Shown: one piece after another, positions 5,544-23,750 of the stretch
How positions within the stretch are numbered: position 1 is the stretch's first letter
How the letters are laid out: each line of letters opens with the position of its first letter
Origin: a virus
Taxonomy: Duplodnaviria > Heunggongvirae > Uroviricota > Caudoviricetes
Direction: 5' to 3' (one strand)
IMG/VR virus record: IMGVR_UViG_2778261673_000009
Length of the DNA stretch: 23,750 bases
The notes under the pieces: model-generated
What the model was told of the DNA's origin: nothing
The model's database searches: none
What the model saw: only the letters and a program-made list of their open reading frames with translations
Translations under genes and position numbers: made by a program

Positions 5544-5567
5544 ATGCTTGTGTGTTTTTTGTTCATC

Positions 5568-5606: not shown

Positions 5607-5694
5607 AATTTTTATAGTGAAATACAAATCGTTTTTTCTTATTCATTCCCGGCGAATTAATAAAAACAAACAGTAATAAACAGCACAAAAAGCC

Positions 5695-5820: not shown

Positions 5821-5895
5821 AATATAAAAAAACAAACAGTAAGCCGGTTTTTCCTGCGACCTTTTCCTGGCTTGCCGGTCTGAGGATGAGTCTCC

Positions 5896-5913
5896 TGTGT
5901 CAGGGCTGGCACA
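5896..5913 (+). promoter_or_regulatory. TGT-N12-ACA dyad, Psid-like late promoter activator site
   Basis: TGTGTCAGGGCTGGCACA, centred about 80 bp upstream of the sid ATG. Confidence 0.45.
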
Positions 5914-5985
5914 TCTGCAATGCGTCGTGTTGTTGTCCGGTGTACGTCACAATTTTCTCAACCTGAAGTGACGAGGAGCCGGAAA

Positions 5986-6720
5986 ATGTCTGACAACACC
6001 ATCCCTGAATATCTGCAACCCGCGCTGGCACAACTGGAAAAGGCCAGAGCCGCCCATCTTGAGAACGCCCGCCTGATGGATGAGACCGTCACGGCCATTG
6101 AACGGGCAGAGCAGGAAAAAAATGCGCTGGCGCAGGCCGACGGAAACGACGCTGACGACTGGCGCACGGCCTTTCGTGCAGCCGGTGGTGTCCTGAGCGA
6201 CGAGCTGAAACAGCGCCACATTGAGCGCGTGGCACGCCGGGAGCTGGTACAGGAATATGACAATCTGGCCGTGGTGCTGAATTTTGAACGTGAACGCCTG
6301 AAAGGGGCGTGTGACAGCACGGCCACCGCCTACCGGAAGGCACATCATCACCTTCTGAGTCTGTATGCAGAGCATGAGCTGGAACACGCCCTGAATGAAA
6401 CCTGTGAGGTGCTTGTCCGGGCAATGCATCTGAGTATCCTGGTACAGGAAAATCCGCTCGCCAACACCACCGGCCATCAGGGCTACGTCGCACCGGAAAA
6501 GGCTGTCATGCAGCAGGTGAAATCATCGCTGGAACAGAAAATTAAACAGATGCAAATCAGCCTCACCGGCGAGCCGGTTCTCCGGCTGACCGGACTGTCA
6601 GCGGCAACACTCCCGCACATGGATTATGAGGTGGCAGGCACACCGGCACAGCGCAAGGTGTGGCAGGACAAAATAGACCAGCAGGGTGCAGAGCTTAAGG
6701 CCAGAGGACTGCTGTCATGA
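5986..6720 (+). CDS. sid: Sid capsid size-determination (external scaffold) protein
   Basis: Taking the ATG at 5986 (GAGGAG 7 nt upstream) gives 244 aa starting MSDNTIPEYLQPALAQLEK, matching P4 Sid in length and N-terminus. Track ORFs antisense to it are rejected. Confidence 0.85.
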   Translation: MSDNTIPEYLQPALAQLEKARAAHLENARLMDETVTAIERAEQEKNALAQADGNDADDWRTAFRAAGGVLSDELKQRHIERVARRELVQEYDNLAVVLNFERERLKGACDSTATAYRKAHHHLLSLYAEHELEHALNETCEVLVRAMHLSILVQENPLANTTGHQGYVAPEKAVMQQVKSSLEQKIKQMQISLTGEPVLRLTGLSAATLPHMDYEVAGTPAQRKVWQDKIDQQGAELKARGLLS

Positions 6721-7217
6721 TTTACTGCCCGTCGTGTGGACATGTTGCTCACACCCGCCGCGCACATTTCATGGACGATGGCACCAAGATAATGATTGCA
6801 CAGTGCCGGAATATTTATTGCTCTGCGACATTTGAAGCGAGTGAAAGCTTTTTCTCTGACAGTAAAGATTCAGGAATGGAATACATTTCAGGCAAACAGA
6901 GATACCGCGATTCACTGACGTCAGCCTCCGGCAGTATGAAACGCCCGAAAAGAATGCTTGTTACCGGATATTGTTGTCGGAGATGTAAAGGCCTTGCACT
7001 GTCAAGAACATCGAGGCGTCTGTCTCAGGAAGTCACCGAGCGTTTTTATGTGTGCACGGATCCGGGCTGTGGTCTGGTGTTTAAAACGCTTCAGACCATC
7101 AACCGTTTCATTGTCCGCCCGGTCACGCCGGACGAACTGGCAGAAAGCCTGCATGAAAAACAGGAACTGCCGCCAGTACGGTTAAAAACACAATCATATT
7201 CGCTGCGTCTGGAATGA
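6717..7217 (+). CDS. delta: Delta late-gene transcriptional activator (duplicated Ogr-like zinc finger)
   Basis: 166 aa, as P4 Delta, with two Cys-rich Ogr-like halves (CPSCGH...C....C and CCRRC...C.DPGC). ATGA overlap with the sid stop. Confidence 0.85.
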   Translation: MIYCPSCGHVAHTRRAHFMDDGTKIMIAQCRNIYCSATFEASESFFSDSKDSGMEYISGKQRYRDSLTSASGSMKRPKRMLVTGYCCRRCKGLALSRTSRRLSQEVTERFYVCTDPGCGLVFKTLQTINRFIVRPVTPDELAESLHEKQELPPVRLKTQSYSLRLE

Positions 7218-7290
7218 GGGCTGCCGGTTAACCCCGGCCGTCGCCGCACACCGTATTTTTATTCTTCAGCATGATGAGAAAGAGATAACG

Positions 7291-7863
7291 ATGGAAAGCA
7301 CAGCCTTACAGCAGGCCTTTGACACCTGTCAGAATAACAAAGCAGCATGGCTGCAACGCAAAAATGAGCTGGCAGCGGCCGAACAGGAATACCTGCGGCT
7401 TCTGTCAGGAGAAGGCAGAAACGTCAGTCGCCTGGACGAATTACGCAATATTATTGAAGTCAGAAAATGGCAGGTGAATCAGGCCGCCGGTCGTTATATT
7501 CGTTCGCATGAAGCCGTTCAGCACATCAGCATCCGCGACCGGCTGAATGATTTTATGCAGCAGCACGGCACAGCACTGGCGGCGGCACTGGCACCGGGGC
7601 TGATGGGCTACAGTGAGCTGACGGCCATTGCCCGAAACTGTGCCATACAGCGTGCCACAGATGCCCTGCGTGAAGCCCTTCTGTCCTGGCTTGCGAAGGG
7701 GGAAAAAATTAATTATTCCGCACAGGATAGCGACATTTTAACGGCCATCGGATTCAGGCCTGACGCGGCTTCGGTGGATGACAGCCGTGAAAAATTCACT
7801 CCTGCGCAGAACATGATTTTTTCGCGTAAAAGTGCGCAACTGGCATCACATCAGTCTGTGTAA
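7291..7863 (+). CDS. psu: Psu polarity-suppression / capsid-decoration protein
   Basis: 190 aa, as P4 Psu, and the last gene of the sid-delta-psu operon. Confidence 0.85.
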   Translation: MESTALQQAFDTCQNNKAAWLQRKNELAAAEQEYLRLLSGEGRNVSRLDELRNIIEVRKWQVNQAAGRYIRSHEAVQHISIRDRLNDFMQQHGTALAAALAPGLMGYSELTAIARNCAIQRATDALREALLSWLAKGEKINYSAQDSDILTAIGFRPDAASVDDSREKFTPAQNMIFSRKSAQLASHQSV

Positions 7864-7898
7864 AACTCCCCGAAAATCCGCCCGTTTTTACTGAAAAA

Positions 7899-7940
7899 AG
7901 CCATGCATCGATAAGGTGCATGGCTTTGCATGCGTTTTCC
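7899..7940 (+). terminator. Terminator-like hairpin after psu
   Basis: Perfect 9-bp stem AGCCATGCA / TGCATGGCT (7899-7907 and 7917-7925) with a 9-nt loop, followed by TTGCATGCGTTTTCC. The T tract is imperfect. Confidence 0.45.
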
Positions 7941-8027
7941 TGCCTCATTTTCTGCAAACCGCGCCATTCCCGGCGCGGTCTGAGCGCGTCAGTACAACTG
8001 CATTAAAACCGCCCCGCAAAGCGGGCG

Positions 8028-8046
8028 GGCGTGGCGGGGGGAGCAT
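8028..8046. other. cos-like cohesive-end site
   Basis: GGCGTGGCGGGGGGAGCAT matches the P2/P4 19-nt cohesive end (GGCGAGGCGGGGAAAGCAC, recalled from memory) at 15/19 positions. It lies about 165 bp past psu, as in P4, next to a GC-rich inverted repeat (CCGCCCCGC/GCGGGCGG). Confidence 0.55.
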
Positions 8047-8129
8047 TGCGCGCTAAGGCTGATATTATAATTTTCTTTAATTCTATTTGGTATTTTGGCT
8101 TTATTCGTCAGAAGGAACTTTTAGAAATA

Positions 8130-8157
8130 GACCACTACAATGGATTGTAGCGGTCTG
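8130..8157 (-). terminator. Inverted-repeat hairpin downstream of the cargo operon
   Basis: AGACCACTACAAT-GG-ATTGTAGCGGTCT (12/13-bp stem), 9 nt after the partner gene stop. The following minus-strand tract ATTTCTAAAAG is only weakly U-rich. Confidence 0.3.
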
Positions 8158-8165
8158 CATGATAT

Positions 8166-8906
8166 CTAGCGTTGCATTTCAGTTACTATGAAATTTTCTT
8201 CTGTAATAGAATTCATTATCTCAAAGTACAATTCTTCAGGTTGAATAAACGCCAACTCTTTGCAAAGGTTGACAATGGTATCACTATAAGTGATACCCAT
8301 CCGAGGATTGAAAAGCTCAAATCTCTTGATGTTTCTTTTGTTTTTTGAGTAAAAGTTTAAAGTGAAATATATTAGCACCTGTCTAAGATCGTAAACACTA
8401 AACTTCCTATCTCCTGATTTTATTTCCACAAGAACATTTGAATAATAAATATCGCCATATGAATTATTTATTACTCCGCATCCATCGAATTGTGGAGACA
8501 CTTCAATTTGGTTTTCCATTCCATATCGAGACAAAATGTTTCTTGCTATTTCCCTTATGGCATTGTACTCAACCATGCTTAAGGGTAGCTTGAAGTTAGA
8601 ACCGTAAGCGAACCGCTGTAGATATTCTTTTGTTTTTTCAAAAACAACCTGAAAATCAGCATTATGGAAGATATCATGTGCTGAAAGAATATTTCTGTCT
8701 AACGAATCATTCTGTATTGCCCTATATAAATTAAATGCGCACTCATTGACAAAGACGTTATTTGACCTATTAGCGCAGTCATCTAGAGGAGGATAAACGT
8801 CCTCGATGAGACTGCCGTTAATGATGCGTATGAAATTATTAGCATTTGGAAGCAATTGATTCCAAAATGAAGTGAATTTTCGAGAAAACGTTAATTCAGA
8901 TATCAT
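8166..8906 (-). CDS. Hypothetical 246-aa protein, partner of the reverse-transcriptase gene; possible PD-(D/E)xK-type nuclease
   Basis: AT-rich ORF whose ATG overlaps the RT stop (ATGA). It contains GDIYYSNVLVEIKSG, that is D-x9-E-x-K. The nuclease reading is motif-level inference only. Confidence 0.6.
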   Translation of the reverse strand: MISELTFSRKFTSFWNQLLPNANNFIRIINGSLIEDVYPPLDDCANRSNNVFVNECAFNLYRAIQNDSLDRNILSAHDIFHNADFQVVFEKTKEYLQRFAYGSNFKLPLSMVEYNAIREIARNILSRYGMENQIEVSPQFDGCGVINNSYGDIYYSNVLVEIKSGDRKFSVYDLRQVLIYFTLNFYSKNKRNIKRFELFNPRMGITYSDTIVNLCKELAFIQPEELYFEIMNSITEENFIVTEMQR

Positions 8907-10531
8907 AGCGCATCCTCAAGATTTCTTGCGGTATGCCTTTTACTTGCCCAATCCCTGTAAATCACCTCTACAAAGTTGAATGTTTTCTTATTATGCTCTC
9001 TCCAGTGCCGTCCTTCATCACCTAAGATGTAACTGGAAACGATCAATAGTCTTCTCTGCAACGGATGCATTGCAGAGAAATTTTTTTTGATATCAGAAAG
9101 CCATGCGTAAGAATTAATTTTTGCCATTGACTGTGTAACTATGTTCTTGACTAAGATGCTTTCTGGATTGTTATTGTATATTTCACTAAGGATTAGGGTG
9201 GATTTTTCTGAATTTTCTTTTGAGAGCATTCGGGCTACATAGGCTAAGTTGAGCTCAGTACTCAAAATATATGAATCTTGTTTAATTAGTGCAGTTATTT
9301 TATCAAGAATAATATCTTTGGTTTCTGTGCTTAATTTTTGCCAGTTGGAGTTAGCTACTTGAATTATAGTTGTAAATATTGGATATAACTCATGCAAGTT
9401 ATTAAACATTACTTTGAAAGCACTACTTATTATTTCATCTGATGTTGCTGAGAATGCCTTTATCAAATGCTTGCTAAAAGATTGGTTAATTTTTGATTTT
9501 TGTAACTCACTACTCAGCATAGCTAACAAGTCAAAATCTTTTAAAGATTCCTTTATCTCTTCATATTCCTCTATCGCATTTGCTGAGTAAGGATCGAATC
9601 TTATAGGAAGACTCATAAATTTAGCCTTCATAGGAGATTCTTCATCTTCATCATTACCATGCAACTTAGCTTTAGTTACTGAAAGGAACTCTTCTTTAGT
9701 AACAATATTGGTTTTTTGTTTCTGTAAAGTTAGCCCTTCATTTTCCATCAGTTTTTTACTAAGCAAAGTTAAAATCTTATGAGCATCCTCTCTAGAGTTA
9801 CAAAAAATAACAAAGTCGTCGACATAACGCTTATAGTTGATTCTATTCATAGACAATAATTTATCAATAGAATCTAGAGCTAGTTCTGCTAATATTCTAG
9901 AGGCAGGACATCCAACTGGTACTCCATATGATTTTGTTTCACTAAATGTCTGTAGTAATTTCTTGATTTTCCCAGAGTAATCTTTATTGGGGTCTACTCT
10001 ATCTAACGCATTTTCTAAACGGTGGTGATAAATACGCGGATAGAAATCTGCTATATCGCATGTAAGTACATACTTTATTTCATCGTTAGAACATTCAGAG
10101 ATACTGTCTTCTTGATATTTTCTCCAAGAGATCTCTTTATCAAAAAGAGAACCATCAGCAAGGTTTGGTTTAAAGCGATATGAATAAACCTGCGTTTTAG
10201 TAGATCTATTCCTTTCAATATCATCAGCGATTTTTAAAACTAACCCAAGAAAAAAAGCATTCCAGAATGGATCAATTTGGGTCGCCCACCTGTAACCATA
10301 ATAACCAATACTTGAAAAGCTATTAATTATGTTTGGTGGAATCTCGATCCTTTTATTTTCAAAGTCATTAAATGTTTGCATTAATGCAGTTTTTACTTTC
10401 TCCTTATCATCTTCAAATAACCGACTTTCAAATGGGTAAGGGAAAATATCTGTATCGCCGTGCTTTATAATATTTTCCAATGCAAGCTCAAAGCAATTTT
10501 CTAGTTTACTACTATCAAACTCGTTACTCAT
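8903..10531 (-). CDS. Reverse-transcriptase-domain protein with a long alpha-helical C-terminal extension (Abi/DRT-like architecture)
   Basis: 542 aa with RT motifs read directly: CDIADFYPRIYHHRL (motif A-like), YGVPVGCPASRILAELAL (motif B-like) and YKRYVDDFVIF (YxDD catalytic motif, encoded near 9811-9822). About 250 C-terminal residues lie beyond the RT core. Strongly AT-rich relative to its neighbours. Confidence 0.85.
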   Translation of the reverse strand: MSNEFDSSKLENCFELALENIIKHGDTDIFPYPFESRLFEDDKEKVKTALMQTFNDFENKRIEIPPNIINSFSSIGYYGYRWATQIDPFWNAFFLGLVLKIADDIERNRSTKTQVYSYRFKPNLADGSLFDKEISWRKYQEDSISECSNDEIKYVLTCDIADFYPRIYHHRLENALDRVDPNKDYSGKIKKLLQTFSETKSYGVPVGCPASRILAELALDSIDKLLSMNRINYKRYVDDFVIFCNSREDAHKILTLLSKKLMENEGLTLQKQKTNIVTKEEFLSVTKAKLHGNDEDEESPMKAKFMSLPIRFDPYSANAIEEYEEIKESLKDFDLLAMLSSELQKSKINQSFSKHLIKAFSATSDEIISSAFKVMFNNLHELYPIFTTIIQVANSNWQKLSTETKDIILDKITALIKQDSYILSTELNLAYVARMLSKENSEKSTLILSEIYNNNPESILVKNIVTQSMAKINSYAWLSDIKKNFSAMHPLQRRLLIVSSYILGDEGRHWREHNKKTFNFVEVIYRDWASKRHTARNLEDAL

Positions 10532-11708
10532 TCACATTCTCCTTAATAAAAATATAATCTGAATACCACTGCATCATATCACGGCGTTTATCAATATATT
10601 GAGCATGATTATACGTACCTCTAATATTATTCTTATCTATATGAGCAAGCTGTATTTCTATCCAAGCCGAATCATATCCTTTTTCGTGGAGGATAGTAGA
10701 TAAGGAATGTCGAAATCCATGACCAGTAAGTTTTCCACCATAACCAATACGCTTGATAACTTGGTTAATACTCGCCTCACTCATAGGCTTGTTCGGATCG
10801 TTCCGCCCCGGAAAAACATAACTATACTTCCCTGTCATCATCTTGAGTTCATTTAGCAAATCTAACGCTTGAGTCGACAAAGGCACAAGGTGTGATCTGC
10901 GCATTTTCATCCTTTCAGCAGGAATTTCCCAAATAGCGTTATCTAAATCAAATTCTGACCATAATGCCGCACGTAATTCGATGGTTCTAACACCTGTAAT
11001 CATGAGCAATTTCGTGGCAATCAGGACAAGCCGACTTCCGGTATATCCGTTTAAGGCGCGAAGAAAATCAGGTATCTCATTAGCCTTTAAGAACGGGAAA
11101 TGATTTGATTGGTGTACATTGAGGGCGCTTGAAAGATCCGCAGCAGGGTTAAACTCAGCCCTTCCAGTAGCAATGGCATAGCGGAAAACTTCTGAGCATC
11201 GCTGCCGAACTTTGCGCATTTTTTCTAATGCACCGCGCTTTTCGATTTTACGCAGCACATTAAGCAGTTCTAGCGGTTTAATCTCTCCCACTGGCCTTGT
11301 TCCCACATAAGGAAAAATGTCGTTCTTAAACGCTTCCATGATGTCTGATGCATATCCCGCCGACCATTTGGTAGACTTCTGTTGATGCCACTCTCTGGCT
11401 ATCTTTTCGAAGGCGTTCTCTGACTCTGTTTGCAGAGCCAGCTTTTGCTCTTTTCGAACCTCACTAGGGTTCTTTCCTTCTGCCACAAGTTTTCGAGCTT
11501 CATCACGACGGGAACGAGCATCAGCAAGAGTGATCGTTGGGTAAACACCAAGCGAGATCATTTTGGGTTTACCGGCATAGCGATAACGAAATCGCCAGCT
11601 TTTACTTCCATTTGGCTCTACAAGTAAAGACAACCCTTGCCCATCCCCAAGTGTATAGGCTTTAGCTTCAGGTTTAGCACGGCGAATCTGCATATCATTT
11701 AGGGGCAT
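10524..11708 (-). CDS. int: P4-family tyrosine integrase
   Basis: 394 aa with a typical P4-type integrase N-terminus (AKPEAKAYTLGDGQGLSLLVEPNGSKSWRFRYRY) and a C-terminal catalytic region (HGFRHSLSTIL...). It is adjacent to the putative att core. The true start may be the second Met, 15 nt downstream. Confidence 0.9.
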   Translation of the reverse strand: MPLNDMQIRRAKPEAKAYTLGDGQGLSLLVEPNGSKSWRFRYRYAGKPKMISLGVYPTITLADARSRRDEARKLVAEGKNPSEVRKEQKLALQTESENAFEKIAREWHQQKSTKWSAGYASDIMEAFKNDIFPYVGTRPVGEIKPLELLNVLRKIEKRGALEKMRKVRQRCSEVFRYAIATGRAEFNPAADLSSALNVHQSNHFPFLKANEIPDFLRALNGYTGSRLVLIATKLLMITGVRTIELRAALWSEFDLDNAIWEIPAERMKMRRSHLVPLSTQALDLLNELKMMTGKYSYVFPGRNDPNKPMSEASINQVIKRIGYGGKLTGHGFRHSLSTILHEKGYDSAWIEIQLAHIDKNNIRGTYNHAQYIDKRRDMMQWYSDYIFIKENVNE

Positions 11709-11872
11709 GTGTATAGAATTCCAAAATCGAACAGGAACATATACATAATCCTATACACATTTAGTACTGGATTCTACTGGAAAGTTATGGACTAATACGA
11801 ACAGTAAAAACAAAAAATCTTTTATAAAACAGTGCGGTTATGGATAAATACGGATGTTTGAAGAAGTGGAGA

Positions 11873-11890
11873 TGGTGCCGATAATAGGAG
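11873..11890. repeat. Putative attachment-site core, junction copy next to int (ATGGTGCCGATAATAGGA)
   Basis: Direct repeat of 546-563, about 165 bp upstream of the int start. The nearby sequence carries TATACACA-type motifs (11712-11760), also seen inside the other end (620-641), as expected for integrase arm sites. Confidence 0.45.
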
Positions 11891-12033
11891 TAAAACACTC
11901 GATTAATCTCGTGTTAATGCCATCACCTACGACTATTACTAATTGATTGAATCTTATAGAAAAATAATCATTTTCTATGCGTCACAATCAATTTTCACAT
12001 TACAAACGCTCCGACACTTTAGCCGGAGATTTT

Positions 12034-13311
12034 ATGAGATACAAGCCTAACCAATACTTAATCTGTGATTCTTACGGTAACTACTATTTAAGGATCACGC
12101 TGCCTGTGTATATGCAGCCCTTTTTTGAAGGAAAAAGGACGTTTGTCAGAAGTCTACACACAAGTAATCTTCGTGTTGCACGTAGAAAGCGTGATCAGAT
12201 TGCAGATGAATACCATTGCTTACGGGAGAGTGTTGCCCCTGTAAACAGCACAATAGAAAACACGCTGGAACTGTTACGCAGTAAGGCTAAATACGCCAAA
12301 ACAGCTACCAGAGTGCAAGATACAGCGTCTTCGTGTCCGTCATTGCTTAAAATTCTTGAAATCTACCTGACAATTAACAGCACGAAGAAGAAGCCAGCCA
12401 CTTTAGCTAAGGCAAGAAAAGCGGTAGAGATGTTTCTCTCCTACCGTAAAAAGCCTGATATTGCATTGCAAGATGTAAGCCGCACCACTGTTACAGGCTG
12501 GATTGAACACATGCAAAAAACTCTTTCACAACAATCAATTGCAAATTATATCAGCCCAATGGCCCAGCTATGGGAGTTAGCTTCATCACGTTACCACGAT
12601 GCGCCAGAAAGGGCGCTCTCCCCCTGGCGAGGGCATAGGCTTGATGTGGCACAAAGTAGAGAGAGCTACGAGGCATTTTCTAACAAAGAGCTATTGCAGG
12701 TGTTGCAAGTATTTTCCGGTAATTCAGCAGAAAACAAAGAAATGACGGCTTTGTGTCTTATCGGTTTATATACAGGTATGCGGATCAATGAGATAGCAAG
12801 TCTCACAATAGACGATGTGAAAGAGATCGAAGGTGTGCTGTGTTTTGAAATCACACAGGGAAAGACGAAAGCAGCGGCACGTGTTGTGCCTGTACATAGC
12901 CTTATCACTCCGTTGGTGTTGTCGCTGCGTGAAAAGCCTCACAATGGCTTTTTGTTCTATCACGCCAGCATTACAGAGCGTGCTGATGGTAAACGTTCCA
13001 CGTGGCATACGCAGAGATTTACAAGAGCTAAACGAAAGGCTTTAGGGGAAAAGGGAACAGAAAGGAAGGTGTTTCATTCTCTGAGACACGGAGTAGCACA
13101 GCTTCTTGATCGAAATCAAATTCCAGAAGACAGGATCGCCCTTCTCCTGGGCCATACACGCGGCAATACAGAAACATTCCGCACATATAGCAAAAATGCA
13201 GCTTCTCCAGTAGAGCTTAAAAAATATATTGAGCTTTTACGCTACCCTGAAATAGAGAAAGGCTTATCAATCAATAAAAAATCAAATTTAAGGCGTAAAA
13301 CAACGCCATAG
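12034..13311 (+). CDS. Tyrosine recombinase / phage-type integrase of a second element
   Basis: Catalytic motifs visible: TGMRINEI, HSLRHGVAQLL and LLGHTRGNTETFRTYS. The track's longest ORF begins at 11977, but the ATG at 12034 has a GGAG Shine-Dalgarno 6 nt upstream and is preferred. Confidence 0.8.
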   Translation: MRYKPNQYLICDSYGNYYLRITLPVYMQPFFEGKRTFVRSLHTSNLRVARRKRDQIADEYHCLRESVAPVNSTIENTLELLRSKAKYAKTATRVQDTASSCPSLLKILEIYLTINSTKKKPATLAKARKAVEMFLSYRKKPDIALQDVSRTTVTGWIEHMQKTLSQQSIANYISPMAQLWELASSRYHDAPERALSPWRGHRLDVAQSRESYEAFSNKELLQVLQVFSGNSAENKEMTALCLIGLYTGMRINEIASLTIDDVKEIEGVLCFEITQGKTKAAARVVPVHSLITPLVLSLREKPHNGFLFYHASITERADGKRSTWHTQRFTRAKRKALGEKGTERKVFHSLRHGVAQLLDRNQIPEDRIALLLGHTRGNTETFRTYSKNAASPVELKKYIELLRYPEIEKGLSINKKSNLRRKTTP

Positions 13312-13392: not shown

Positions 13393-14070
13393 CTATTGTT
13401 TAAATACTGGTGTTACAACGTCTTGCCCTGGGCTTTTTTGATTTTTCTGTTCTGTTGTATTTACCTGCATTTTAACCTGTCCCCCTACAGATTTATTTGG
13501 TGCTGTTTTTACAGCAATAGCATTAGTGGTGGCCTTAGAGACAAGACGAATTTGCTCAAAATCAAGAGTAAACAATATGCTTTCGCTTGCTTCTTCTTCG
13601 TAAGACATGCCAACTAACACAACGTTGTCATAATTTTTTAACTCAGTGACAAGTAGGAAAGGTTGGCGACTGTCCATCAACTGATTTAGGTATTCAAGCA
13701 TAAGCATACGTCGATTGCCGTTAATTCCAGCATTCTTAATCATATCAGGATTGAGCTTCAATACGGTTTCAGAGATACGCCCTTGTAATGTGAACTTGTT
13801 ATTCCGTATTTGAACATGATCACTAACTTCTGATCCTGATTCGACAGCATAGCTTGTAACGTCTGCATTTCTGCTAACTCTCGTCGATTCCACGCTATCA
13901 AATGATAATGCCTGGTAGTCATTGTAAGCAGCATTTGCACCACTGCCGAGATTAGAGGTAATGATCGCAAAGCCGTTACCCCCTTTAGTTGTTCTACCGT
14001 TGCTATCGTTGCTTGTGCTGTTGATTTTCGCCTCAGTCGGGCGACCAATGGTTAACGGACCCATTGCCAT
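13393..14070 (-). CDS. Hypothetical 225-aa protein, last gene of the structural-type operon
   Basis: ORF with AAGGA about 9 nt upstream of the ATG, co-directional with the upstream genes. No recognisable motif. Confidence 0.55.
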   Translation of the reverse strand: MAMGPLTIGRPTEAKINSTSNDSNGRTTKGGNGFAIITSNLGSGANAAYNDYQALSFDSVESTRVSRNADVTSYAVESGSEVSDHVQIRNNKFTLQGRISETVLKLNPDMIKNAGINGNRRMLMLEYLNQLMDSRQPFLLVTELKNYDNVVLVGMSYEEEASESILFTLDFEQIRLVSKATTNAIAVKTAPNKSVGGQVKMQVNTTEQKNQKSPGQDVVTPVFKQ

Positions 14071-14117: not shown

Positions 14118-15959
14118 TTAATAGGTTGACCCGCCTGACATAACACCCAGCGTTAATAGCTTGCTAAACTCAGCGGAGGATGCCTTTGATTTGAAGTCGA
14201 TAAATTCGCTCAATCGTCCGGTGTCTGATTCGATAGTTAGCGGCACTTCTGCATTTACTTGTAATTCTGGATTGAAGTTAATAACAGGTGCAAAGGTGTA
14301 AGAAGGAGCCTTGAAAGCTTGTTGTGCTGCACTCTGTTTCAGATTTGCAATGTTTTGTCCTTCGAGACTGTATTGATTTACAGCCTGCGCCCCACCTACC
14401 GTTTCTTCTGGCATAAACCAGCTTTTAATAGTGTTAACCAGGGAATTGCTGTTATCTGGCTTAGTTGTTCCGGTGCCAGCGCCTTTATATTGATCAGGAG
14501 TGAGATTAGAAAGATTCTGCTTCATTCCTTCGTTAGATAGTGGCGGTGCATCACCTAAATTCTTCTGAATAGCTGCCGTCTTCTCGTCGTTTTTCATCAG
14601 CCAGTTGATTGTTTTCATTACGGCGTTAACCAATCCGCCGATAGCCTCGCCTAATTTGGTAAACATTGGCAGCATTGCAACCATGCTCTTTTTAAACTCT
14701 TCAATCACTTTCGGATCAAGAGATTTCATAAAGCCATCAACAAAGGCGATCCCTTGTGAGTCAGAAAGCCCACTAAGTGCATTATTCAGTTCACGGAATT
14801 TAATAACGCTTTCCTGTTGTGCCTGTGTTACCCAGCGCCCTGATTCTCGTTGTTCTCGTGCTGATTGTTCCACTTCTTTAGCGGAGCGTGTCCAGTATTT
14901 AGAGGTGAGCATCAAATCATCAGCCAGATCTTCCAGACGACTACCGATTTGTGCATCTGAATAGCCTTTAGCTACCATTCCCTGAACTGCTTTACTAACC
15001 AGACCAGCCGGATTATCAGCAAAGTCTTTTAGATCCTTTTTAGTTAGGAATCCTTCATTCATTAAAGTATTGATGCCGCTATCGCCGCCCTTCCATTCGC
15101 CTTTCCCTGTTTTCTTATCGACTACATATTCAGCCTCATCATAGCTTTTGGTTGCACGCTCACGCACATCTTTCATCTGATCGAGATACTTACGTTTACC
15201 TTGATCCCCCATCATTGAATCAACGCCGTTTTTATACGCCCATTGCTCAATATTGTTCATCTGGTTAACGTCTACACCGCCCAGCTTCGCACGGCTATAC
15301 AATTCTCCCAGCGTTTCAGCACTGGCAAAGCTGTTAGTAACAAATTCAGAGGCTTTGCTCATAGCCATATACGTAGCGCCAGCGCCTAAGCCACCCAGCA
15401 TAACAGCCGCAGCACCGCCGCCAATACTCCCGCTACCCTTAACAGGTGCATAGGCTTTAGCGTGAGCGTTACGATTGCCATTAATCTTACGTTGTTGCTG
15501 TTGTAGGCGTTTCATTTGGCTATTCATACGTGCCAGACTAATAGCGCCTCTTTCATATTGGAGGGCAATTTCTCTAGCCTGTGCAATAGCTTTATATTGT
15601 TCCGCTACAGAAAGACGGTGCATTGCACTAATGCTTGATCCAACGTCTAAAAGCTTTAAGTCTGCCTTCTCTTTGCGTGCTGCCAGGGCTTTTTGTTCTC
15701 TTGCAACTACACGTTGAGCGGCTAATTGTGCTTTAGCATTAGCTTTATCAGCCTGTGCTTGCTTTTTAGCAATATCGTCTACGTCTTTTTTTGCTTTAGC
15801 GGTTGATTGTTTATGTGTCTTAACACGCAATTCTATATCTTTCACAGCCGCCATTTGTTTACGAAGTTTTTCTACTTCTGCTTTTGCTTTCTCTAATGAT
15901 GGTCGATCAACCTGGAAGGTGACAACGTTTGATAAGCGGCTGACGGTAAGGTCTAACAT
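14118..15959 (-). CDS. 613-aa protein with N-terminal coiled-coil region and Gly-rich hydrophobic segment (tape-measure-, ejection- or scaffold-like)
   Basis: The N-terminal 150 aa are rich in K/A/E/Q heptad-like sequence, followed by GSGSIGGGAAAVMLGGLGAGATYMAM and then a long polar region. The functional class is inferred from composition only. Confidence 0.65.
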   Translation of the reverse strand: MLDLTVSRLSNVVTFQVDRPSLEKAKAEVEKLRKQMAAVKDIELRVKTHKQSTAKAKKDVDDIAKKQAQADKANAKAQLAAQRVVAREQKALAARKEKADLKLLDVGSSISAMHRLSVAEQYKAIAQAREIALQYERGAISLARMNSQMKRLQQQQRKINGNRNAHAKAYAPVKGSGSIGGGAAAVMLGGLGAGATYMAMSKASEFVTNSFASAETLGELYSRAKLGGVDVNQMNNIEQWAYKNGVDSMMGDQGKRKYLDQMKDVRERATKSYDEAEYVVDKKTGKGEWKGGDSGINTLMNEGFLTKKDLKDFADNPAGLVSKAVQGMVAKGYSDAQIGSRLEDLADDLMLTSKYWTRSAKEVEQSAREQRESGRWVTQAQQESVIKFRELNNALSGLSDSQGIAFVDGFMKSLDPKVIEEFKKSMVAMLPMFTKLGEAIGGLVNAVMKTINWLMKNDEKTAAIQKNLGDAPPLSNEGMKQNLSNLTPDQYKGAGTGTTKPDNSNSLVNTIKSWFMPEETVGGAQAVNQYSLEGQNIANLKQSAAQQAFKAPSYTFAPVINFNPELQVNAEVPLTIESDTGRLSEFIDFKSKASSAEFSKLLTLGVMSGGSTY

Positions 15960-15993: not shown

Positions 15994-16191
15994 TTATTGT
16001 TTTTTAGAACAATAATATTGGATTGCTTCGAAAGTGCTGCACCCGGTCTGAAACACACGCTGCCGCACATTATTTGCATCAATTGAAAGCATTCTGCATA
16101 AGGCACTGACATTGATTATTGAGTCATCGCTAATAGCTGCCAGTTCTTTTACAGATTTAAGAATTAATGCCTGTGAATTTTCTGTGTTCAT
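15994..16191 (-). CDS. Small hypothetical protein (65 aa)
   Basis: ORF with a weak ribosome-binding site between the capsid-like gene and the 613-aa gene. Confidence 0.3.
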   Translation of the reverse strand: MNTENSQALILKSVKELAAISDDSIINVSALCRMLSIDANNVRQRVFQTGCSTFEAIQYYCSKKQ

Positions 16192-16355: not shown

Positions 16356-17384
16356 TTACGCTACTGTGATCTGCACAGAGAAGCCAACACCGTGGTTAAC
16401 CACAAGCGAGCTATTCTCGGTCACTACGTGCACTGCGTCGCCGCGATTCGATTCGAAAGCATAGCTGTAATACTCTTTAGCGCCTTGAGACAGCAGATCG
16501 AAGGAACTGGAAGGCGCGCCATAGATAGCTTGGTAAACACCTCCACCCTTAGCGAATTTAGGCACGGCTACAGCGTCAGCGGTCATATGTGCCAGCAGCA
16601 GCGGATCAGTCACTTTGATCAGATCAATGTTAGTTCCTGGAATGGTGAAAGTAGTTACGCCAGGCAGCAGAGAACGCACATTAAACACCACGTTTGCATC
16701 GTCTACAGGGCTTGCATATTGGAACGCATTGACCATGCCAACGCTGTAACGAATAGCGTTGAATGCCGCAGGTTTACAGAACACAACAACACGCTCAATG
16801 GTTGCAGCCTGGCTTTGTGCCTTAGCAATCATATCCGTATGCATCTGATCAAATTGCTTGAATACGGTCATTGTGTTGGTGCTGGATGCGTCAACGGTTG
16901 CAGTCATTGGAGACACACCGAACAGAGTGCTGTAATCGATCAGAACATCGTCAGTTTTCGGCGTATGTGTCTTGCCAGAGAACAGAGAAGCCGCGAGGAT
17001 GCTTTCTTTAGTGCGCTGGAATGCAACATTGTGTTTAGCGATATATTCCGCATACAGATCCGGCAGTGTTTCTTCAATAGAGCTTCCGGCTTTGCGTTTG
17101 CCTTGCACGTCCTGCGGTTTGATCAGGTCTTCACGCAGGAAGTAAGGGATTTCAATCAGCCATTCTTCCCCGTTCTCACGCTTAGTAACGTTATGCTCAG
17201 AGCTAAAACGGCTTGTAGGATGGTTGAACAGAGATTCATTGCTCTCGATAAGCTGGGAAACAGCCACTTTGTGACTTTCTACAGGCACAGGATCAGTAAA
17301 ATCCAGAGTAGACAGTAGGTAATTGCGTGAGTCGTTTAATTCGAACAGTGGAGCAAGATCAACCACTTCATTTCCGATAATCAT
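16356..17384 (-). CDS. Putative major capsid protein, lambda gpE-like
   Basis: 342 aa, essentially the length of lambda E-family capsid proteins. C-terminus ...GFSVQITVA resembles the E-family C-terminal motif as recalled. Preceded by a 124-aa gene, like the lambda D-E pair. GAAGGA lies 10 nt upstream of the ATG. Confidence 0.5.
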   Translation of the reverse strand: MIIGNEVVDLAPLFELNDSRNYLLSTLDFTDPVPVESHKVAVSQLIESNESLFNHPTSRFSSEHNVTKRENGEEWLIEIPYFLREDLIKPQDVQGKRKAGSSIEETLPDLYAEYIAKHNVAFQRTKESILAASLFSGKTHTPKTDDVLIDYSTLFGVSPMTATVDASSTNTMTVFKQFDQMHTDMIAKAQSQAATIERVVVFCKPAAFNAIRYSVGMVNAFQYASPVDDANVVFNVRSLLPGVTTFTIPGTNIDLIKVTDPLLLAHMTADAVAVPKFAKGGGVYQAIYGAPSSSFDLLSQGAKEYYSYAFESNRGDAVHVVTENSSLVVNHGVGFSVQITVA

Positions 17385-17400: not shown

Positions 17401-17775
17401 TTAAGATGTGAAAACAGAGTGGAAGCCTTCAAGCTGGAAGCCTTTAGCAGCGAGAGCTGCAATAGCAGCTTCTTTTACAGCGCCTTCGGCATTCAGGGCA
17501 TCAGCTTTGATGCAAACGAGTCCGGCATTAGCACGAAGCACGTTAACTGTTTTATTTGAATCAGCAGTTACGAAGTCAGACACAACGACAAGAACATCAG
17601 CGCCGCTAACATATTTAGCGCCGGATGAATCAATGAGGTCGCCGCACGTTACATCTTGTGCAAGTGCTGCAAATTTTTTGCTTTCTACAGCCGCGTAAGG
17701 GTCGGTTGCATAGCTCACTACGTCAGTGATGCTTTTACGATGTGGGAAAACATCGCTTAATTTTAAAATAGCCAT
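17401..17775 (-). CDS. Putative head-decoration-like protein (124 aa)
   Basis: Small Ala/Val/Gly-rich protein immediately upstream of the capsid-like gene. Strong AAGGA ribosome-binding site. Start overlaps the stop of the upstream gene (TAATG). Function assigned by position and size only. Confidence 0.4.
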   Translation of the reverse strand: MAILKLSDVFPHRKSITDVVSYATDPYAAVESKKFAALAQDVTCGDLIDSSGAKYVSGADVLVVVSDFVTADSNKTVNVLRANAGLVCIKADALNAEGAVKEAAIAALAAKGFQLEGFHSVFTS

Positions 17776-17984
17776 TATTTTTCCTTAGATTGTTTGATTT
17801 GTTGAGCTTTAGCATTAATCAAATCTTGGTGAGATGGTTTATTGCTGTCAGCCTTATAAAGACGTTCACACTGTTTCTTTAATTCTGTAGGAGTGATGCC
17901 AAGCGCGTAGGCTGTAGCATTCAACACATCCTCAGTTAGTGTTAACTTTTCATTGCCATATTTCAGGATAATTTCTTGTTTCAT
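17775..17984 (-). CDS. Small hypothetical protein (69 aa), first gene of the structural-type operon
   Basis: ORF translationally coupled (TAATG) to the 124-aa gene. Weak ribosome-binding site. Confidence 0.45.
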   Translation of the reverse strand: MKQEIILKYGNEKLTLTEDVLNATAYALGITPTELKKQCERLYKADSNKPSHQDLINAKAQQIKQSKEK

Positions 17985-18013
17985 AAAATAACGATTCCGT
18001 TATGTTCCGAGTA

Positions 18014-18062
18014 ATAAAAAGCCCCAGGCTATAAGAGGTTCAATCAACAATAGCAAGGGGCT
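18014..18062 (-). terminator. Terminator-like hairpin preceding the structural-type operon
   Basis: GCCCC(AG)GCTAT...ATAGC(AA)GGGGC stem-loop followed on the minus strand by a T run (plus-strand AAAAA at 18016-18020). It sits between the early-type genes and the capsid-like genes. Confidence 0.3.
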
Positions 18063-18990
18063 TATTTATTTTGTATCGGGCAAAATACATATTGTGATAA
18101 GTCAACTTTGAGGAGGTTTAACGTTATCTCTAAGAATACTTTTATAAATACGCTTAGAGATATGTTAAGGGTGAATAACAGGACCGCAGGAGAAATTGGC
18201 TCTTAGGAGGGGCCAACCCTTTGGAATCTACGATCCTGCTATTCGATGCGGGGGCTAAACCGCTGCCTGTTTTTGCTGTGGATGCAACAAAGTAAGGCTT
18301 TAAGGAATCACTATTCCAATTCTAATCTACTCACAGATCAAATTTTAATAGGATTAACTACACCAACAGTAATCTACCGTTTCAGAAAATCGTTTTTACA
18401 ACCAAAGCTTATAGATCCGCATTCTATAAAACCCGTTTTGCTATCAATATTTCCAAAGTTTATTGCACCATTCTTAGCTAAACTCTCTCTACTTGCGGCT
18501 AACGCTATGCAGATGATAGTTTTTTGACAACAACTTAATAGATTATTCTGTTACTAACTTCCGTCATTAAATAAGAGTTTAATGATGTTAGTAAATAGTT
18601 ATAAAATATAACTATCAGTGTAAGGCTCTTTAATGTTTTCGGACAAAATAAGGAGCTTTAGGATAAGCATAGATGAAAAATAAGAGCGGGAAGGGCAAGG
18701 AGATAACACCTACCCGCTTTTATCAAAATTAAGCACAATGCCTAACAACATTCATCAACACAACGTAGAAACAATCAACAATCAAAGAGGGAGTTATGAT
18801 TATTCTAAAACTTCTTGAGAGATGGAAGGTAATATTTGTTAGAGGTTAATGCCACTCAACCTTTGAGGCTATCACCTTCCATATGCAGGGATTTATGACA
18901 ATAGAAGGATTAACGCCAACTAAAATCTTTTTATCTACCCCTAAAATTATTATATAACAAAATCATTATAAATGCAAATGATTTTCATTA

Positions 18991-20319: not shown

Positions 20320-20889
20320 TTAGAATGGTATTGAATCGTATATTTCACTTTTTTCTCTTAGAGATATTATCAGATCGTGAAAAGCCTGTTTCTCAAGATA
20401 GATATTCTTTGAATCTAATGCACGTTTTACAAAATCTTCTGTTTCTTCGTGCGGTGGTTTCTTCTTATCAAGGGAAAGAAGCCAAGTAAAAATTTCGGGC
20501 CGCTCAGGGAACTCTGATTCCTGTGTTTCTTCTTCAACGATGATTTCGGAAACATTCAATATTTCATTAGATTCGTCTTCTTTCTCAGAAGGATCAGGTA
20601 GTGATGATTCTCCTTTTGGAATATCAAGCACTCGATAAAGGTTAGAGCTTCCTGGTCGTGCATCTTTTATAATTAATCCCATTTCGAGCAATTTCTTAAC
20701 CCTTTCTTCTGCTGCTCTTGGTGTTATGCCAAAAACATCGCCTATCTTAGCGTAAGAGGGAAATGCACGATCAAACCCTCTCAAATAGCAGTAAAGGTTT
20801 TTAGCACTATCTGTAAATTTATGCCCGTTTACTTGGCTTATTTTTAGAATCCACATAGGAACTTTTACAAATTGTTCTTCATTAATCAT
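20320..20889 (-). CDS. Putative replication initiator / replisome-organiser with N-terminal winged-helix domain
   Basis: Likely start is the ATG at 20889 (AAGGAG 7 nt upstream; the track ORF begins at a GTG at 20913). N-terminal pattern FVKVPMWILK...SAKNLYCYLRGF...FPSYAKIGDVFGITPRAAEERVKKLLEMGLI is typical of phage and island replication-initiator DNA-binding domains. Acidic C-terminal half. Confidence 0.55.
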   Translation of the reverse strand: MINEEQFVKVPMWILKISQVNGHKFTDSAKNLYCYLRGFDRAFPSYAKIGDVFGITPRAAEERVKKLLEMGLIIKDARPGSSNLYRVLDIPKGESSLPDPSEKEDESNEILNVSEIIVEEETQESEFPERPEIFTWLLSLDKKKPPHEETEDFVKRALDSKNIYLEKQAFHDLIISLREKSEIYDSIPF

Positions 20890-20942
20890 TAAAAATCTCC
20901 TTGATGTAATCACGCTCTACGGCGCTACTATGGTGATAAAAA

Positions 20943-21317: not shown

Positions 21318-21486
21318 TAATTAACCTCCTATTCTATTTGGTTAAAAGAAAAAACACCTTGCAAGCCTTGTTGGGCTTCAAAGTGCGGTGCATTGGTTTA
21401 ATTACTTAGAGGATAAGAATGTTTTCTGTCCCTAATATTACTTTACCACGACTAAAAGCTTTTGTCAACCCCTGGCCATAAAAATA

Positions 21487-21511
21487 TTGATCATTTTCAG
21501 TGTGTTATAAT
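21487..21511 (+). promoter_or_regulatory. Candidate extended -10 promoter (TGTTATAAT) reading rightward into the ORF-poor region
   Basis: TGT-TATAAT at 21503-21511 with TTGATC 13 nt upstream. The upstream hexamer is too close for a standard -35, so the call rests on the extended -10 alone. Confidence 0.3.
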
Positions 21512-21618
21512 TTTTCTTAGCAATTCGTGCTCTTACGAGTGTTCCTATTCTTCCTTATTCTCTAAAACGCTCTAAAACGCGTTCTAACGAGGTATTTGAT
21601 AAAAACAATACATTCCCT

Positions 21619-21656
21619 TATGTAGAGGTTGTTTAGCTCGCCAGAGGCTTATTTAA
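21619..21656. repeat. Repeated element, copy 1 (GTTTAGCTCGCC-N3-GGCTT-ATTTAAG-GGG)
   Basis: GTTTAGCTCGCCAGAGGCTTATTTAAGGGG recurs at 21797-21832. The tail AAGGGGCTTATTT..TTGTAT also recurs at 18052-18076. Confidence 0.5.
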
Positions 21657-21796
21657 GGGGCTTATTTTGTATTTGTTAGGTATATGAAAAGGAGATGATA
21701 GATAAAATCTAATTTCAGACATCTTATAAAATACCTGTAAAGCTCTCAGAAGCTCTGTAACGAGCTAATCTATTACCGCTAAGTGTTTCCCTGCCT

Positions 21797-21832
21797 TATA
21801 TACGTTTAGCTCGCCTACGGCTTGATTTAAGC
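21797..21832. repeat. Repeated element, copy 2
   Basis: GTTTAGCTCGCCTACGGCTTGATTTAAGCGG, a direct repeat of 21619-21656 with few mismatches. Confidence 0.5.
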
Positions 21833-22301
21833 GGTAGAATCTTATTTAACCTTCAACTACTAAAACCATTCTTTCTTTTTTGTTTGTTGTTGGTTGTTGT
21901 CTGTGTCTATGTGCTAACATCGCTAACGCGTAGCACACAAGGTTATTGCACAAGTAAATTTCAATCGTTAGATGGTAGTTAGTTAATTATCGTTCTGCGC
22001 ACAGCGCAAGACTATTTAGCCTTACGCAAGCCGTAGGCTATTTGCACATAGTAGATTACATATTCGTTGTGAGCGGCATTAGCGAACATAGATCTACTAA
22101 CTAACATCAACAAACAAAAACTATGTGTTATGACAAGCAGTCTAACGACTAACACTCTAACTTGTGCAAGGTTCTGGCGAATGCCAATAGATTAAGGGAT
22201 AGTCAAGGACTCCCCTAACGGGTACCCCTATAATTATTCTTTAAAGATAAAAGAATTTATAAAAGATAATTTAATTGTAGTTTGATAGTTGATCTAATAG
22301 G

Positions 22302-22435
22302 TAACAAAATTCTGTAGGGGTGGCTAACAGTTTTCTGTGGGGGTGTATAACATAATTCTGTTAGGGTTGGGGTAACAGTTTTCTGTTAGGGTGCATATTT
22401 CTTTAAAAGTTAAGGATAACAGAATTCTGTGGGGG
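22302..22435. repeat. Iteron array: five 19-bp direct repeats TAACA-N3-TTCTGT-N-GGG(G), each with an internal ACAG-N4-CTGT dyad
   Basis: Units start at 22302, 22325, 22348, 22373 and 22417, giving spacings of 23, 23, 25 and 44 bp. The unit at 22417 contains the perfect palindrome ACAGAATTCTGT. Putative origin of the second element. Confidence 0.6.
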
Positions 22436-23262
22436 TAGTTCACAGTGACCTACCGTTACATCCATTTATCACATAACATCTGTGCAATGATCTTCTAAAA
22501 GTGTTTCTTGCTACCAAAATTAAACATCTAAAACAGGCTTAAATTCAAGATTAATTGATGATTAATCCTTATGTAATTCCATACTAAAAATTCAATGAAA
22601 AGTAGCTTAAAAGTGCAATTCTTACTTTCTTCACTTTTACATCACTTTCGCAAAGCCTTGTGTAATGCGGCTTACAGAGCACTATCAGAAATTGTTGATT
22701 AAAAATCAATCTATTATTTGTCGAACAAGTTTCTTTCACGTGTTGAAAATTTATGTTTAAATTTGCTTTCAATCTTTAATGTGCAATCACTATCAACATA
22801 AAAATAAAAACCTTCTATTATATTTCATAGCATACAAAAGTCAATAGAAGCCCTCTCGTGCTCCTACGTAAAAAATCCACCACTTTTCCCCTGATACATC
22901 AACTCAAGGCGTTCTATGTGTTCCTTAGTGCATATTACGATTATTATGTTAAATGGATTTTGGCCTATATTTTGACCTGCACCCGCATAAACACTGGTTT
23001 CATCGCTTACAGCCCTTGTGAGACGTGGTGCTGTTTCTAGCATCTGATCCGACATAAAACCGATCATTCTCGTGTTTAGTGAAAGTTTAGTGAGAGACAT
23101 TACAGAAAGGCTTTCTGTGTAATGATTTAATAGGTAAAAACGATGTTGATTACGCAAGAAAATTCCTTGCTGATATTTGGGGATTCTGGATTTTCCAGAT
23201 CGGGGGGCGCTAAAAATCGCGTTAAGCACCTCTCGCAATCTAGCCATAAGGGAAGGGATATA

Positions 23263-23305
23263 GGTATTTAGATGTATTTATAGCTATTTATGGCTATTTA
23301 TTTTT
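23263..23305. repeat. Four tandem copies of a roughly 10-bp AT-rich unit (nnTATTTAnn)
   Basis: GTATTTAGA TGTATTTATA GCTATTTATG GCTATTTATT, at helical-repeat spacing. A nearby pair CCCTTAAATCCCC / GCCTTAAATACCCC lies at about 23393-23430. Confidence 0.4.
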
Positions 23306-23596
23306 TATTTACCTTTATTAAAAAATAACCTTATAAATCAATAAGATACAGAGCTATCTGTTTATATTTTAATCAATTAAATCAAGTTTAATACCCTTAA
23401 ATCCCCTGAAAATAGCCTTAAATACCCCAATAATTAATTTTAAGGTTTTCCGTGTTCTCTTCTGCATTATGAAAATGCAAAATAAGGCACAAAACAAGCT
23501 CACAGACGCATTAAACACACATCACCTATGCATCCCTATACCAAGCAATGAAAACAGCGTTAGAATGCGTCCTGTTGCGTTCTGGAGATTTTCAGA

Positions 23597-23750
23597 AATC
23601 CTCTCTAAGCCATTTCAACTCACTAAGGAGTTTTCTTTCTTCGTTCTCTCGTTGCTTTCGCTCTAGCCAGGCTTTTCCTTCTGGCGTAGACAGGAACTTA
23701 CGAGCGTGAATCTTGCGGTTATTCCGTTTGATAGCTGCAATGTTTTTCAT
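23597..23750 (-). CDS. Small ORF starting at or beyond the window edge (possibly partial)
   Basis: The minus-strand ATG sits at the last three bases of the window and reads MKNIAAIKRNNRKIHARKFLSTPEGKAWLERKQ... to a stop near 23597. Any upstream signal is outside the window. Confidence 0.25.

Follow-up and report, generated by a model that had tools for sequence, protein, structure and literature searches.

A tape measure protein homologue encoded on a chromosomal satellite island of Escherichia coli

The DNA analysed here, a 23,750-nucleotide stretch filed in IMG/VR as a virus of the class Caudoviricetes (IMGVR_UViG_2778261673_000009; hereafter the window), carries a satellite island of ~13 kb flanked by attachment (att) sites at a tRNA-Thr gene (thrW). 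We investigated a 613-codon open reading frame (ORF) of this island, located on the minus strand with its ATG start at 15959 and its end at 14118 (ORF analysis of the window), and assign it as the gene of a satellite tape measure protein (TMP) from the reading frame itself, its matches to PHROG 16051, phi92 gp134 and phAPEC8 gp104, and the ratio of nonsynonymous to synonymous substitution rates (dN/dS). A first-pass annotation, made from the letters of the sequence, had described a 613-aa protein with a K/A/E/Q-rich N-terminus followed by a Gly-rich hydrophobic stretch, and both its coordinates and its composition were confirmed. Residues 1-170 have a high content of Ala, Lys, Gln and Arg, with 32% charged residues, and the Gly/Ala-rich stretch GSGSIGGGAAAVMLGGLGAGATYMAM corresponds to residues 175-200. 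It falls within a moderately hydrophobic segment (residues 173-201, 15357-15443, minus strand; Kyte-Doolittle 1.0-1.3) that aligns with a hydrophobic segment of phage TMPs, and a second such segment spans residues 425-448 (14616-14687, minus strand; Kyte-Doolittle maximum 1.34). The annotation had proposed transmembrane prediction as a check; on the Kyte-Doolittle scale both segments peak at ~1.2-1.3 over 19 residues, below the level of a classical transmembrane helix. A single-sequence AlphaFold2 model was mostly helical, with a mean predicted local distance difference test score (pLDDT) of 43 overall. Its long helices (residues 19-111 and 118-169) reached 60-72, but the overall quality was insufficient for a fold search. 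These helices, together with the composition, predict a long A/K/Q/R-rich alpha-helical rod at residues 19-169 (15453-15905, minus strand).

Comparison of alleles indicates that the ORF is a genuine gene and not a chance reading frame, because it is present in 490 of 5426 complete E. coli genomes (~9%), all 11 alleles examined were intact at 608-615 aa despite up to 38% sequence divergence, and nine allele pairs gave dN/dS values of 0.14-0.30, with dS up to 1.6.

The identity of the product was established by homology. Residues 154-611 match phrog_16051, 'tail length tape measure protein', in the PHROGs profiles (E 5.5e-32), and a search of the PDB returned phi92 gp134 (21vq chain V, E 9e-22). 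Pairwise alignment with phAPEC8 gp104, which was read by table-11 translation since the phage gene has a non-ATG start codon, begins at residue 1 and extends over 535 aa at 24% identity; at the N-terminus, MLDLTVSRLSNVVTFQVDRPSLEKAK of the island protein pairs with LLEINASKISNVVTFKVDKNSLKEAK of gp104. In a translated search of 50,697 phage genomes all relatives were below 60% identity, nearly all of them belonged to myoviruses of the phAPEC8 group (Phapecoctavirus, Justusliebigvirus) with genomes of ~145-150 kb, and several carry a tape measure protein annotation. In the cryo-electron microscopy structure of phi92, the TMP, a trimer, was assigned to gp134, whose residues 631-656 at the C-terminus are resolved within the baseplate, and the hexameric tube initiator, the ring where the tail tube begins, to gp135 (PMC13450770). 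Pfam, NCBIfam and PADLOC gave zero matches for the 613-aa protein, and the identification is drawn only from PHROGs and from direct comparison with phage and PDB sequences.

By these comparisons the 613-aa protein is a full-length, strongly diverged TMP homologue, and we regard this identity as well supported. Similarly to phi92 gp134 and phAPEC8 gp104 of the Stephanstirmvirinae, with which it is homologous over its full length, it has the N-terminal motif, the central domain and the C-terminal tail, and its gene lies directly upstream of a tube-initiator gene. It differs from them in being only 23-30% identical and 38-49 aa shorter, in missing two segments of the phage TMPs, one rich in Gly/Pro and the other in Arg/Glu, and in being encoded on a 13-kb chromosomal island that has no tube, sheath, chaperone or baseplate wedge genes. 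Among the three classes suggested in the first-pass annotation, tape measure protein is thus borne out by PHROG 16051, phi92 gp134 and phAPEC8 gp104, and for an ejection/pilot protein or a scaffold we found no evidence; nor did we obtain a confident match to a housekeeping family, which the annotation had named as the outcome that would speak against it.

Length and constraint give functional evidence for this assignment. Phage TMPs measure 651-662 aa and island TMPs 608-615 aa, and the Gly/Pro-rich and Arg/Glu-rich phage segments are absent from every island allele alike. The most constrained region is a central domain at residues 206-360 (NGVDS...KDVRER...WKGGDSGIN...DDLM; 14880-15344, minus strand), with dN/dS of 0.05-0.15 and ~35% identity to each of three phage TMPs; all regions remain below 0.6. 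The constancy of length favours a ruler over a mere binding decoy.

The two ends of the protein behave differently from its centre. Residues 1-27 (15879-15959, minus strand) form a phage-like, exchangeable N-terminal module, which in the window is 52% identical to both phAPEC8 and phiWec188 (23-30% for the whole protein) and in a sister allele type 85% identical to phi92. Residues 561-613 (14121-14279, minus strand) form a C-terminal module expected to sit in the baseplate hub, from its identity to phiWec188 and from the position of the phi92 gp134 C-terminus in the baseplate. This module is 45% (window type) and 57% (sister type) identical to phiWec188, whose own TMP C-terminus is only 29% identical to those of phAPEC8 and phi92. 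The last ~50 TMP residues of this phage (locus L033, 11155-13110) are nearer to island TMPs (45-57%) than to other Stephanstirmvirinae TMPs (29%), which suggests, at the level of sequence identity, that a hub-docking module has been exchanged between satellite and phage. Among island alleles the N- and C-terminal ends swap jointly and independently of the central part, and synonymous divergence differs several-fold between regions within one TMP allele pair, pointing to a recombination mosaic. At the nucleotide level, the sister allele type matches phi92 at 86-88% over its first 24 codons, with third-position identity of 67-71% against 18-50% elsewhere; such short patches of synonymous-site identity to phi92 indicate recombination with phage. 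The tube initiators are paired in the same way: the window type is nearest to phAPEC8 (53.6%), and the other type is nearest to phi92 (61%), as is its TMP N-terminus.

Directly after the TMP gene on the minus strand lies the gene of its predicted partner, a 225-aa Dit-like tail tube initiator (13393-14070). The protein matches Pfam Dit_like PF21821 (E 1.7e-27) and the phi92 hexameric tube initiator gp135 (E 2.1e-54), as well as other chains named as tube initiators (9cuy, Pam3 gp17), and is 53.6% identical to gp103 of phAPEC8 and Mt1B1_P17. The order of the two genes equals gp104-gp103 in phAPEC8 and gp134-gp135 in phi92. The first-pass annotation had taken the capsid gene of the island to stand without other tail genes, a premise that does not hold, the 225-aa neighbour being itself a tail gene by PF21821 and phi92 gp135. 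Its idea that the two genes together form a helper-redirecting module fares better and agrees with the explanation that we favour below, the 225-aa protein being the tube initiator with which the TMP is paired in the baseplate.

Upstream of the TMP gene, also on the minus strand, are four further ORFs. The first (65 aa, 15994-16191) keeps its position in all island types; it showed no similarity to phage gp133/gp105 by BLASTP or hhalign, and its AlphaFold2 model of four helices (pLDDT 74) gave no significant or chaperone-like match against PDB folds, only weak matches to helix-turn-helix domains. The second encodes the satellite major capsid protein (342 aa, 16356-17384; Pfam Phage_cap_E, E 3.4e-18), which is 25% identical over its full length to the major capsid proteins of phAPEC8, phi92 and Mt1B1_P17. 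The third (124 aa, 17401-17775) occupies the phage cement/decoration position, equivalent to phi92 gp123 and phAPEC8 gp115; homology to the phage cement protein was undetected by BLASTP and hhalign, and the decoration gene was labelled in these satellites from HHsearch by Barth et al. (PMC10448857). The fourth (69 aa, 17775-17984), the first gene of the structural block, is kept in position across island types and matches no Pfam or PHROG family. The resulting order of decoration, major capsid protein, small ORF, TMP and tube initiator reproduces part of the phage morphogenesis module. Pfam and PHROG scans of the island ORFs, which covered all but a few very small ones, found no terminase, protease, portal, head-tail adaptors, alpA or Pri-Rep.

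Capsid cassettes of the islands come in at least two types (124 + 342 aa, or 127/128 + 343/344 aa) that are ~20% identical over their full length, and at loci L007, L015, L004 and L034 they are freely combined with nearly identical integrases and TMPs. A search for helper-type late promoters in front of the structural genes gave no distinctive motif, since the phage genes use sigma-70-like promoters. A long stretch upstream of these genes (17985-18990) has no convincing ORFs and no Rfam match. At ~18004-18062, immediately ahead of the 69-aa ORF, it holds a hairpin on the minus strand with a T-run after it, and at 18246-18527 an ORF of 93 aa on the opposite strand that is conserved and matches no family.

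The left boundary of the island is an att core, GCCGATAATAGGAGT (11877-11891, plus strand), which copies the 3' end of tRNA-Thr. Such cores flank the island in nine loci, 12.0-13.4 kb apart, and overlap thrW in one of them (L001); for the window, the second copy is placed just past the right end by the 95.5%-identical E. coli CAU16175 locus. Next to the boundary lies a tyrosine integrase of 444 aa (11977-13311, plus strand; Pfam Phage_integrase and DUF6538), which is 98-99% identical across thrW islands. A replication initiator of 197 aa (20320-20913, minus strand) was recognised from PHROG replication-initiation families and HTH_36, and a putative replication origin from four to five copies of the iteron TAACAGnnTTCTGTnGGGGT (22299-22441, unstranded; repeat families D1 and D2). 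The iterons are held in a long stretch (21318-22860) without convincing ORFs or Rfam match. The island site is the CP4-6 locus of K-12, with the same core and different contents. Most relatives carry near the tRNA end a resolvase gene ('recombinase family protein', yagL-like); the window has unrelated sequence at 22750-23605 (compared with L001, 16864-18186).

This element is related to satellites that have already been described. Barth et al. (2023, NAR Genom Bioinform lqad076) reported 224 putative satellites in E. coli and relatives, and annotated 'putative tape measure proteins' in them in one sentence, with no analysis and no proposed role (PMC10448857). CP047378.1 and CP082773.1 appear in their Table S6 together with the att of the island (PMC10448857); the att that we derived independently equals the Table S6 att, and CP047378.1 is 95.5% identical to the window over 10.95 kb. 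The two sets of elements are alike in the att GGTGCCGATAATAGGAGT..., in their integrase, RepA-like initiator, capsid, decoration, 'putative tape measure' and 'baseplate' genes, and in a link to Mt1B1_P17 through the N-terminal domain of the initiator. Compared with CP047378.1, the window copy has an extra P4-like satellite in tandem at the distal att and is missing the resolvase region. In all features compared, namely the att with its tRNA and tyrosine integrase, and capsid, TMP and baseplate genes without terminase, protease, alpA, adaptors or Pri-Rep, the window element agrees with this family, and by sequence it is a member of the Phapecoctavirus satellite family of Barth et al.

The initiator also points to a helper. 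Over the first 338 nucleotides of its gene (20576-20913) the window is 100% identical to the lytic Phapecoctavirus Mt1B1_P17, and residues 1-113 of the product are 98.2% identical to Mt1B1_P17 QNJ49226.1, a protein with HTH_36 repeats and a MUG113 nuclease-like (Odn-like) domain. The TMP and tube initiator of Mt1B1_P17 are 99.6-99.7% identical to those of phAPEC8, and 24% and 53.6% identical to those of the island. From these sequence relationships we presume that the helpers are lytic phAPEC8-type myoviruses (Phapecoctavirus, Justusliebigvirus) and, for the window copy, an Mt1B1_P17-like phage.

To describe how widely the TMP gene occurs, we compared its relatives beyond the thrW islands. The TMP family forms 73 clusters at 50% identity among 1.84 billion proteins. 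A second integrated lineage has a different integrase and adjoins type III secretion genes, and islands of Klebsiella and Pantoea keep the gene order at 33-39% TMP identity. Circular relatives of ~13.65 kb without integrase were found (L004, ERR5014346; L005, GCA_949767545.1; L006, SRR13791242), their circularity being shown by an overlap of 30 nucleotides at the ends and by independent assemblies with circularly permuted contigs; their genes include a helicase-like one (phrog_2467) and an Imm_superinfect (superinfection-immunity) gene beside the tube initiator. Neither PLSDB nor the plasmids of complete E. coli genomes contained the 13.65-kb circular relative. Gene set and order are constant across these three integration/replication lifestyles and across genera. 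Related Pantoea contigs measure 14.05-14.18 kb. One Pantoea-type relative (L039) has a PhiTE-type head-tail adaptor and a Pam3_gp18-like gene between the TMP and Dit-like genes (6739-7242, 11809-12243), and as judged from its sequence the set of helper-derived structural genes is variable within the family. In two IMG/VR proviruses (L029 and L030, 8724-10001) an IS3-family (IS2-like) element has inserted into the TMP gene and split it, giving a natural knockout.

Satellites have long been believed to borrow whole tails. A satellite that does otherwise is PLE11 of Vibrio cholerae, whose helper is ICP1: it encodes a TMP, a chaperone and BhuB that are respectively 20%, 20% and 41% identical to those of ICP1 (bioRxiv 2025.01.29.635557; PMC11838301). 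PLE virions hold the PLE TMP and BhuB in place of those of ICP1, and with a TMP 95 aa shorter the PLE tails measure 94.5 nm, compared with 105.9 nm for ICP1; PLE11 can thereby deploy Rta, an 80-aa inhibitor directed against the ICP1 TMP (PMC11838301). In ICP1 the gene of BhuB (ORF78) lies directly downstream of the TMP gene, and BhuB belongs to PF21821 Dit_like, as does the 225-aa protein of the island. Both PLE and the island are satellites of a lytic myovirus with a TMP of their own that is ~20-25% identical to that of the helper and shorter (613 against 662 aa for the island), adjoined by a Dit_like protein 41-54% identical to its helper counterpart. The two differ in several respects: the island TMP has no detectable homology to the ICP1 TMP family (TMP_3; BLASTP E 0.07), the island has no recognisable chaperone (the ICP1 chaperone is Phage_TAC_15), and the E. 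coli element brings its own capsid gene, whereas PLE reuses the ICP1 coat with a scaffold (TcaP). Furthermore, no Rta-like inhibitor was identified in the island, and the island is known from sequence alone whereas PLE11 is known experimentally.

We therefore consider a tail swap the best current explanation, because the island pair matches, by position and by Dit_like family, the two helper proteins that PLE replaces. Specifically, we put at about 60% the probability that the 613-aa protein acts as the TMP of an integrative satellite of phAPEC8-type phages, replacing the helper TMP and giving chimeric, shorter tails. During helper infection the satellite TMP, probably as a trimer, would dock its C-terminal module into the helper baseplate hub, and a ring of the satellite's own tube initiator would form above the docked C-terminus. 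Helper tube and sheath would then polymerise along the satellite TMP, whose helper-like N-terminus may engage the helper chaperone or tail-terminating proteins at the head-proximal end. The predicted outcome is satellite particles with chimeric tails and with heads built from the satellite's own capsid protein. With a TMP 46-49 aa below that of the helper (659-662 aa), tails should be ~7-8 nm, or about two rings, shorter, calculated at 1.5-1.6 A per residue and with the phi92 ring rise of 38.63 A and its 24 rings. A TMP and an initiator of its own would also free the satellite to sabotage the helper's versions. TMP incorporation and tail shortening are inferred by analogy with PLE11, and so would be any linked inhibitor.

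Several points weigh against this interpretation. Induction of the island, its packaging, particle formation and TMP incorporation are all read from sequence and analogy. The TMP is only ~24% identical to that of the presumed helper, and its compatibility with the helper tube, hub and chaperone is assumed. The missing phage segments include a Gly/Pro-rich stretch that is possibly non-helical, making the calculated tail shortening approximate. No tail assembly chaperone could be recognised among the island ORFs in the Pfam and PHROG scans, though PLE has one, and no terminase, portal or pac site was identified in the island. The window's own TMP allele carries no recent recombination patch at its ends. 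Finally, insertion sequences (IS) inside the TMP gene in some copies indicate that the gene is dispensable for carriage of the island.

Some of these points would fit an alternative in which the island proteins act purely in defence, as a poison of assembly: TMP and initiator, perhaps with the capsid protein, would form dead-end baseplate or tube complexes with helper parts and never enter a transmissible particle. We judge this unlikely, though it is the strongest competitor of the tail swap. Consistent with it, the helper-contacting ends are the most phage-like parts of the TMP, satellite and prophage defences are known to act on tail assembly (Tai systems, PLE11 Rta), and a chaperone, terminase or portal gene was not found in the island; phages of the group moreover carry Odn-like nucleases against the island's replication module, which indicates that the island harms them. 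A decoy, however, needs binding ends only, yet the central domain is the most constrained, the hydrophobic segments are kept and length is held at 608-615 aa. The integrase, att sites, initiator, iterons, narrow size range and circular relative are features of a mobile element, and in the one tested analogue, PLE11, the satellite TMP does enter virions. Poison and tape-measure roles could coexist.

That the island is an inert remnant of a degraded prophage, with capsid, TMP and tube-initiator genes as functionless leftovers, is very improbable. Its position at the CP4-6 cryptic-prophage locus, the absence of most morphogenesis genes and the interruption of some copies by IS elements would agree with such a relic. 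Against this, every region of the TMP is under purifying selection with dS up to 1.6, gene set and order are held across three lifestyles and several genera down to 33% identity, and exchange with a lytic phage was very recent (the 338 nucleotides identical to Mt1B1_P17). In addition, the related phages are strictly lytic and 145-150 kb in size, implausible ancestors of a 13-kb relic.

RefSeq and other sources use the labels 'flotillin family protein', 'cell envelope integrity protein TolA' and 'DUF4670', which look like compositional misannotations; these and the label 'hypothetical' are probably wrong. The corresponding view of a TolA- or flotillin-like envelope or membrane-scaffold protein, or of an ejection/pilot or scaffolding protein, in place of a tail protein draws on those labels and on the Lys/Ala/Glu/Gln-rich helical composition with hydrophobic Gly-rich segments, and can be dismissed as extremely unlikely given that Pfam, NCBIfam and PADLOC families are unmatched, that every specific homology is to phage TMPs, one of them positioned in a solved tail, that the 73 clusters show no housekeeping-family pattern, and that the hydrophobic segments are under transmembrane-helix hydrophobicity.

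Within the tail-swap interpretation, the modular ends lead to a tentative extension, which we hold to be possible but doubtful. The TMP ends and the tube initiator may constitute an exchangeable helper-specificity cassette, retuned by recombination with the Stephanstirmvirinae phages that the satellite meets, and the private pair may give immunity to an Rta-like inhibitor of the satellite's own, encoded among the many unannotated small ORFs of the island and disabling the helper TMP. If true, the island would offer a counterpart in E. coli, amenable to genetics, of the tail conflict between PLE and ICP1.

Two other kinds of satellite also carry structural genes. EPIP satellites of Mycolicibacterium also encode a TMP and a capsid protein, and the tail length of their particles is unlike that of the helper (bioRxiv 2025.12.02.691453; PMC12822802), a likeness that is by description. 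Unlike the island, they have helpers of siphovirus type, and their genes include a serine integrase, a terminase small subunit and head-tail connectors; their tails are longer and variable, whereas those of the island are predicted to be shorter (PMC12822802). Phage-inducible chromosomal islands of the capsid-forming type (cf-PICIs) likewise have their own major capsid gene. They possess a terminase small subunit, prohead protease, portal, head-tail adaptors, alpA and Pri-Rep, and no tail genes; in the island, none of these markers was found in the Pfam and PHROG scans, and tail genes are present. Barth et al. likewise set these satellites apart from cf-PICIs (PMC10448857).

Both the family and its putative TMP were thus already published in 2023, and the novelty of the present identification is low. 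What we add is functional evidence (selection, length and helper-matched modular ends), the parallel with the TMP and BhuB of PLE, a prediction of tail length, the circular relatives and the spread across Enterobacterales. Taken with PLE11, the E. coli family presents a PLE11-like design with an unrelated TMP lineage, plus a private capsid gene. Cocktails for phage therapy make use of phAPEC8-like phages, the likely helpers; should the mechanism hold, islands could blunt such phages and ride them between strains, and would provide a tractable model for the evolution of a ruler protein and its docking ends under conflict.

The tandem satellite at the distal att of this Phapecoctavirus-type element is a complete-looking P4-like element (554-11871), beyond which window positions 1-553 are normal chromosomal flank. 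Its genes include the primase-helicase alpha (1029-3362), Delta (6717-7217), Psu (7291-7863) and a P4-type integrase (10524-11708). It is flanked by GGTGCGATAATAGGA (539-553) and GGTGCCGATAATAGGAGT (11874-11891), which implies that two unrelated satellites occupy one tRNA-Thr-derived att site. In its psu-int hotspot lies a DRT8 defence system (8166-10531), composed of the Drt8 reverse transcriptase (8903-10531, E 4.9e-166) and a PD-(D/E)XK partner (8166-8906, E 5.5e-69). At 4813-5098 lies the P4-type RNA immunity region, in which Rfam identified C4 antisense RNA, isrK and the c4 a1b1 target.

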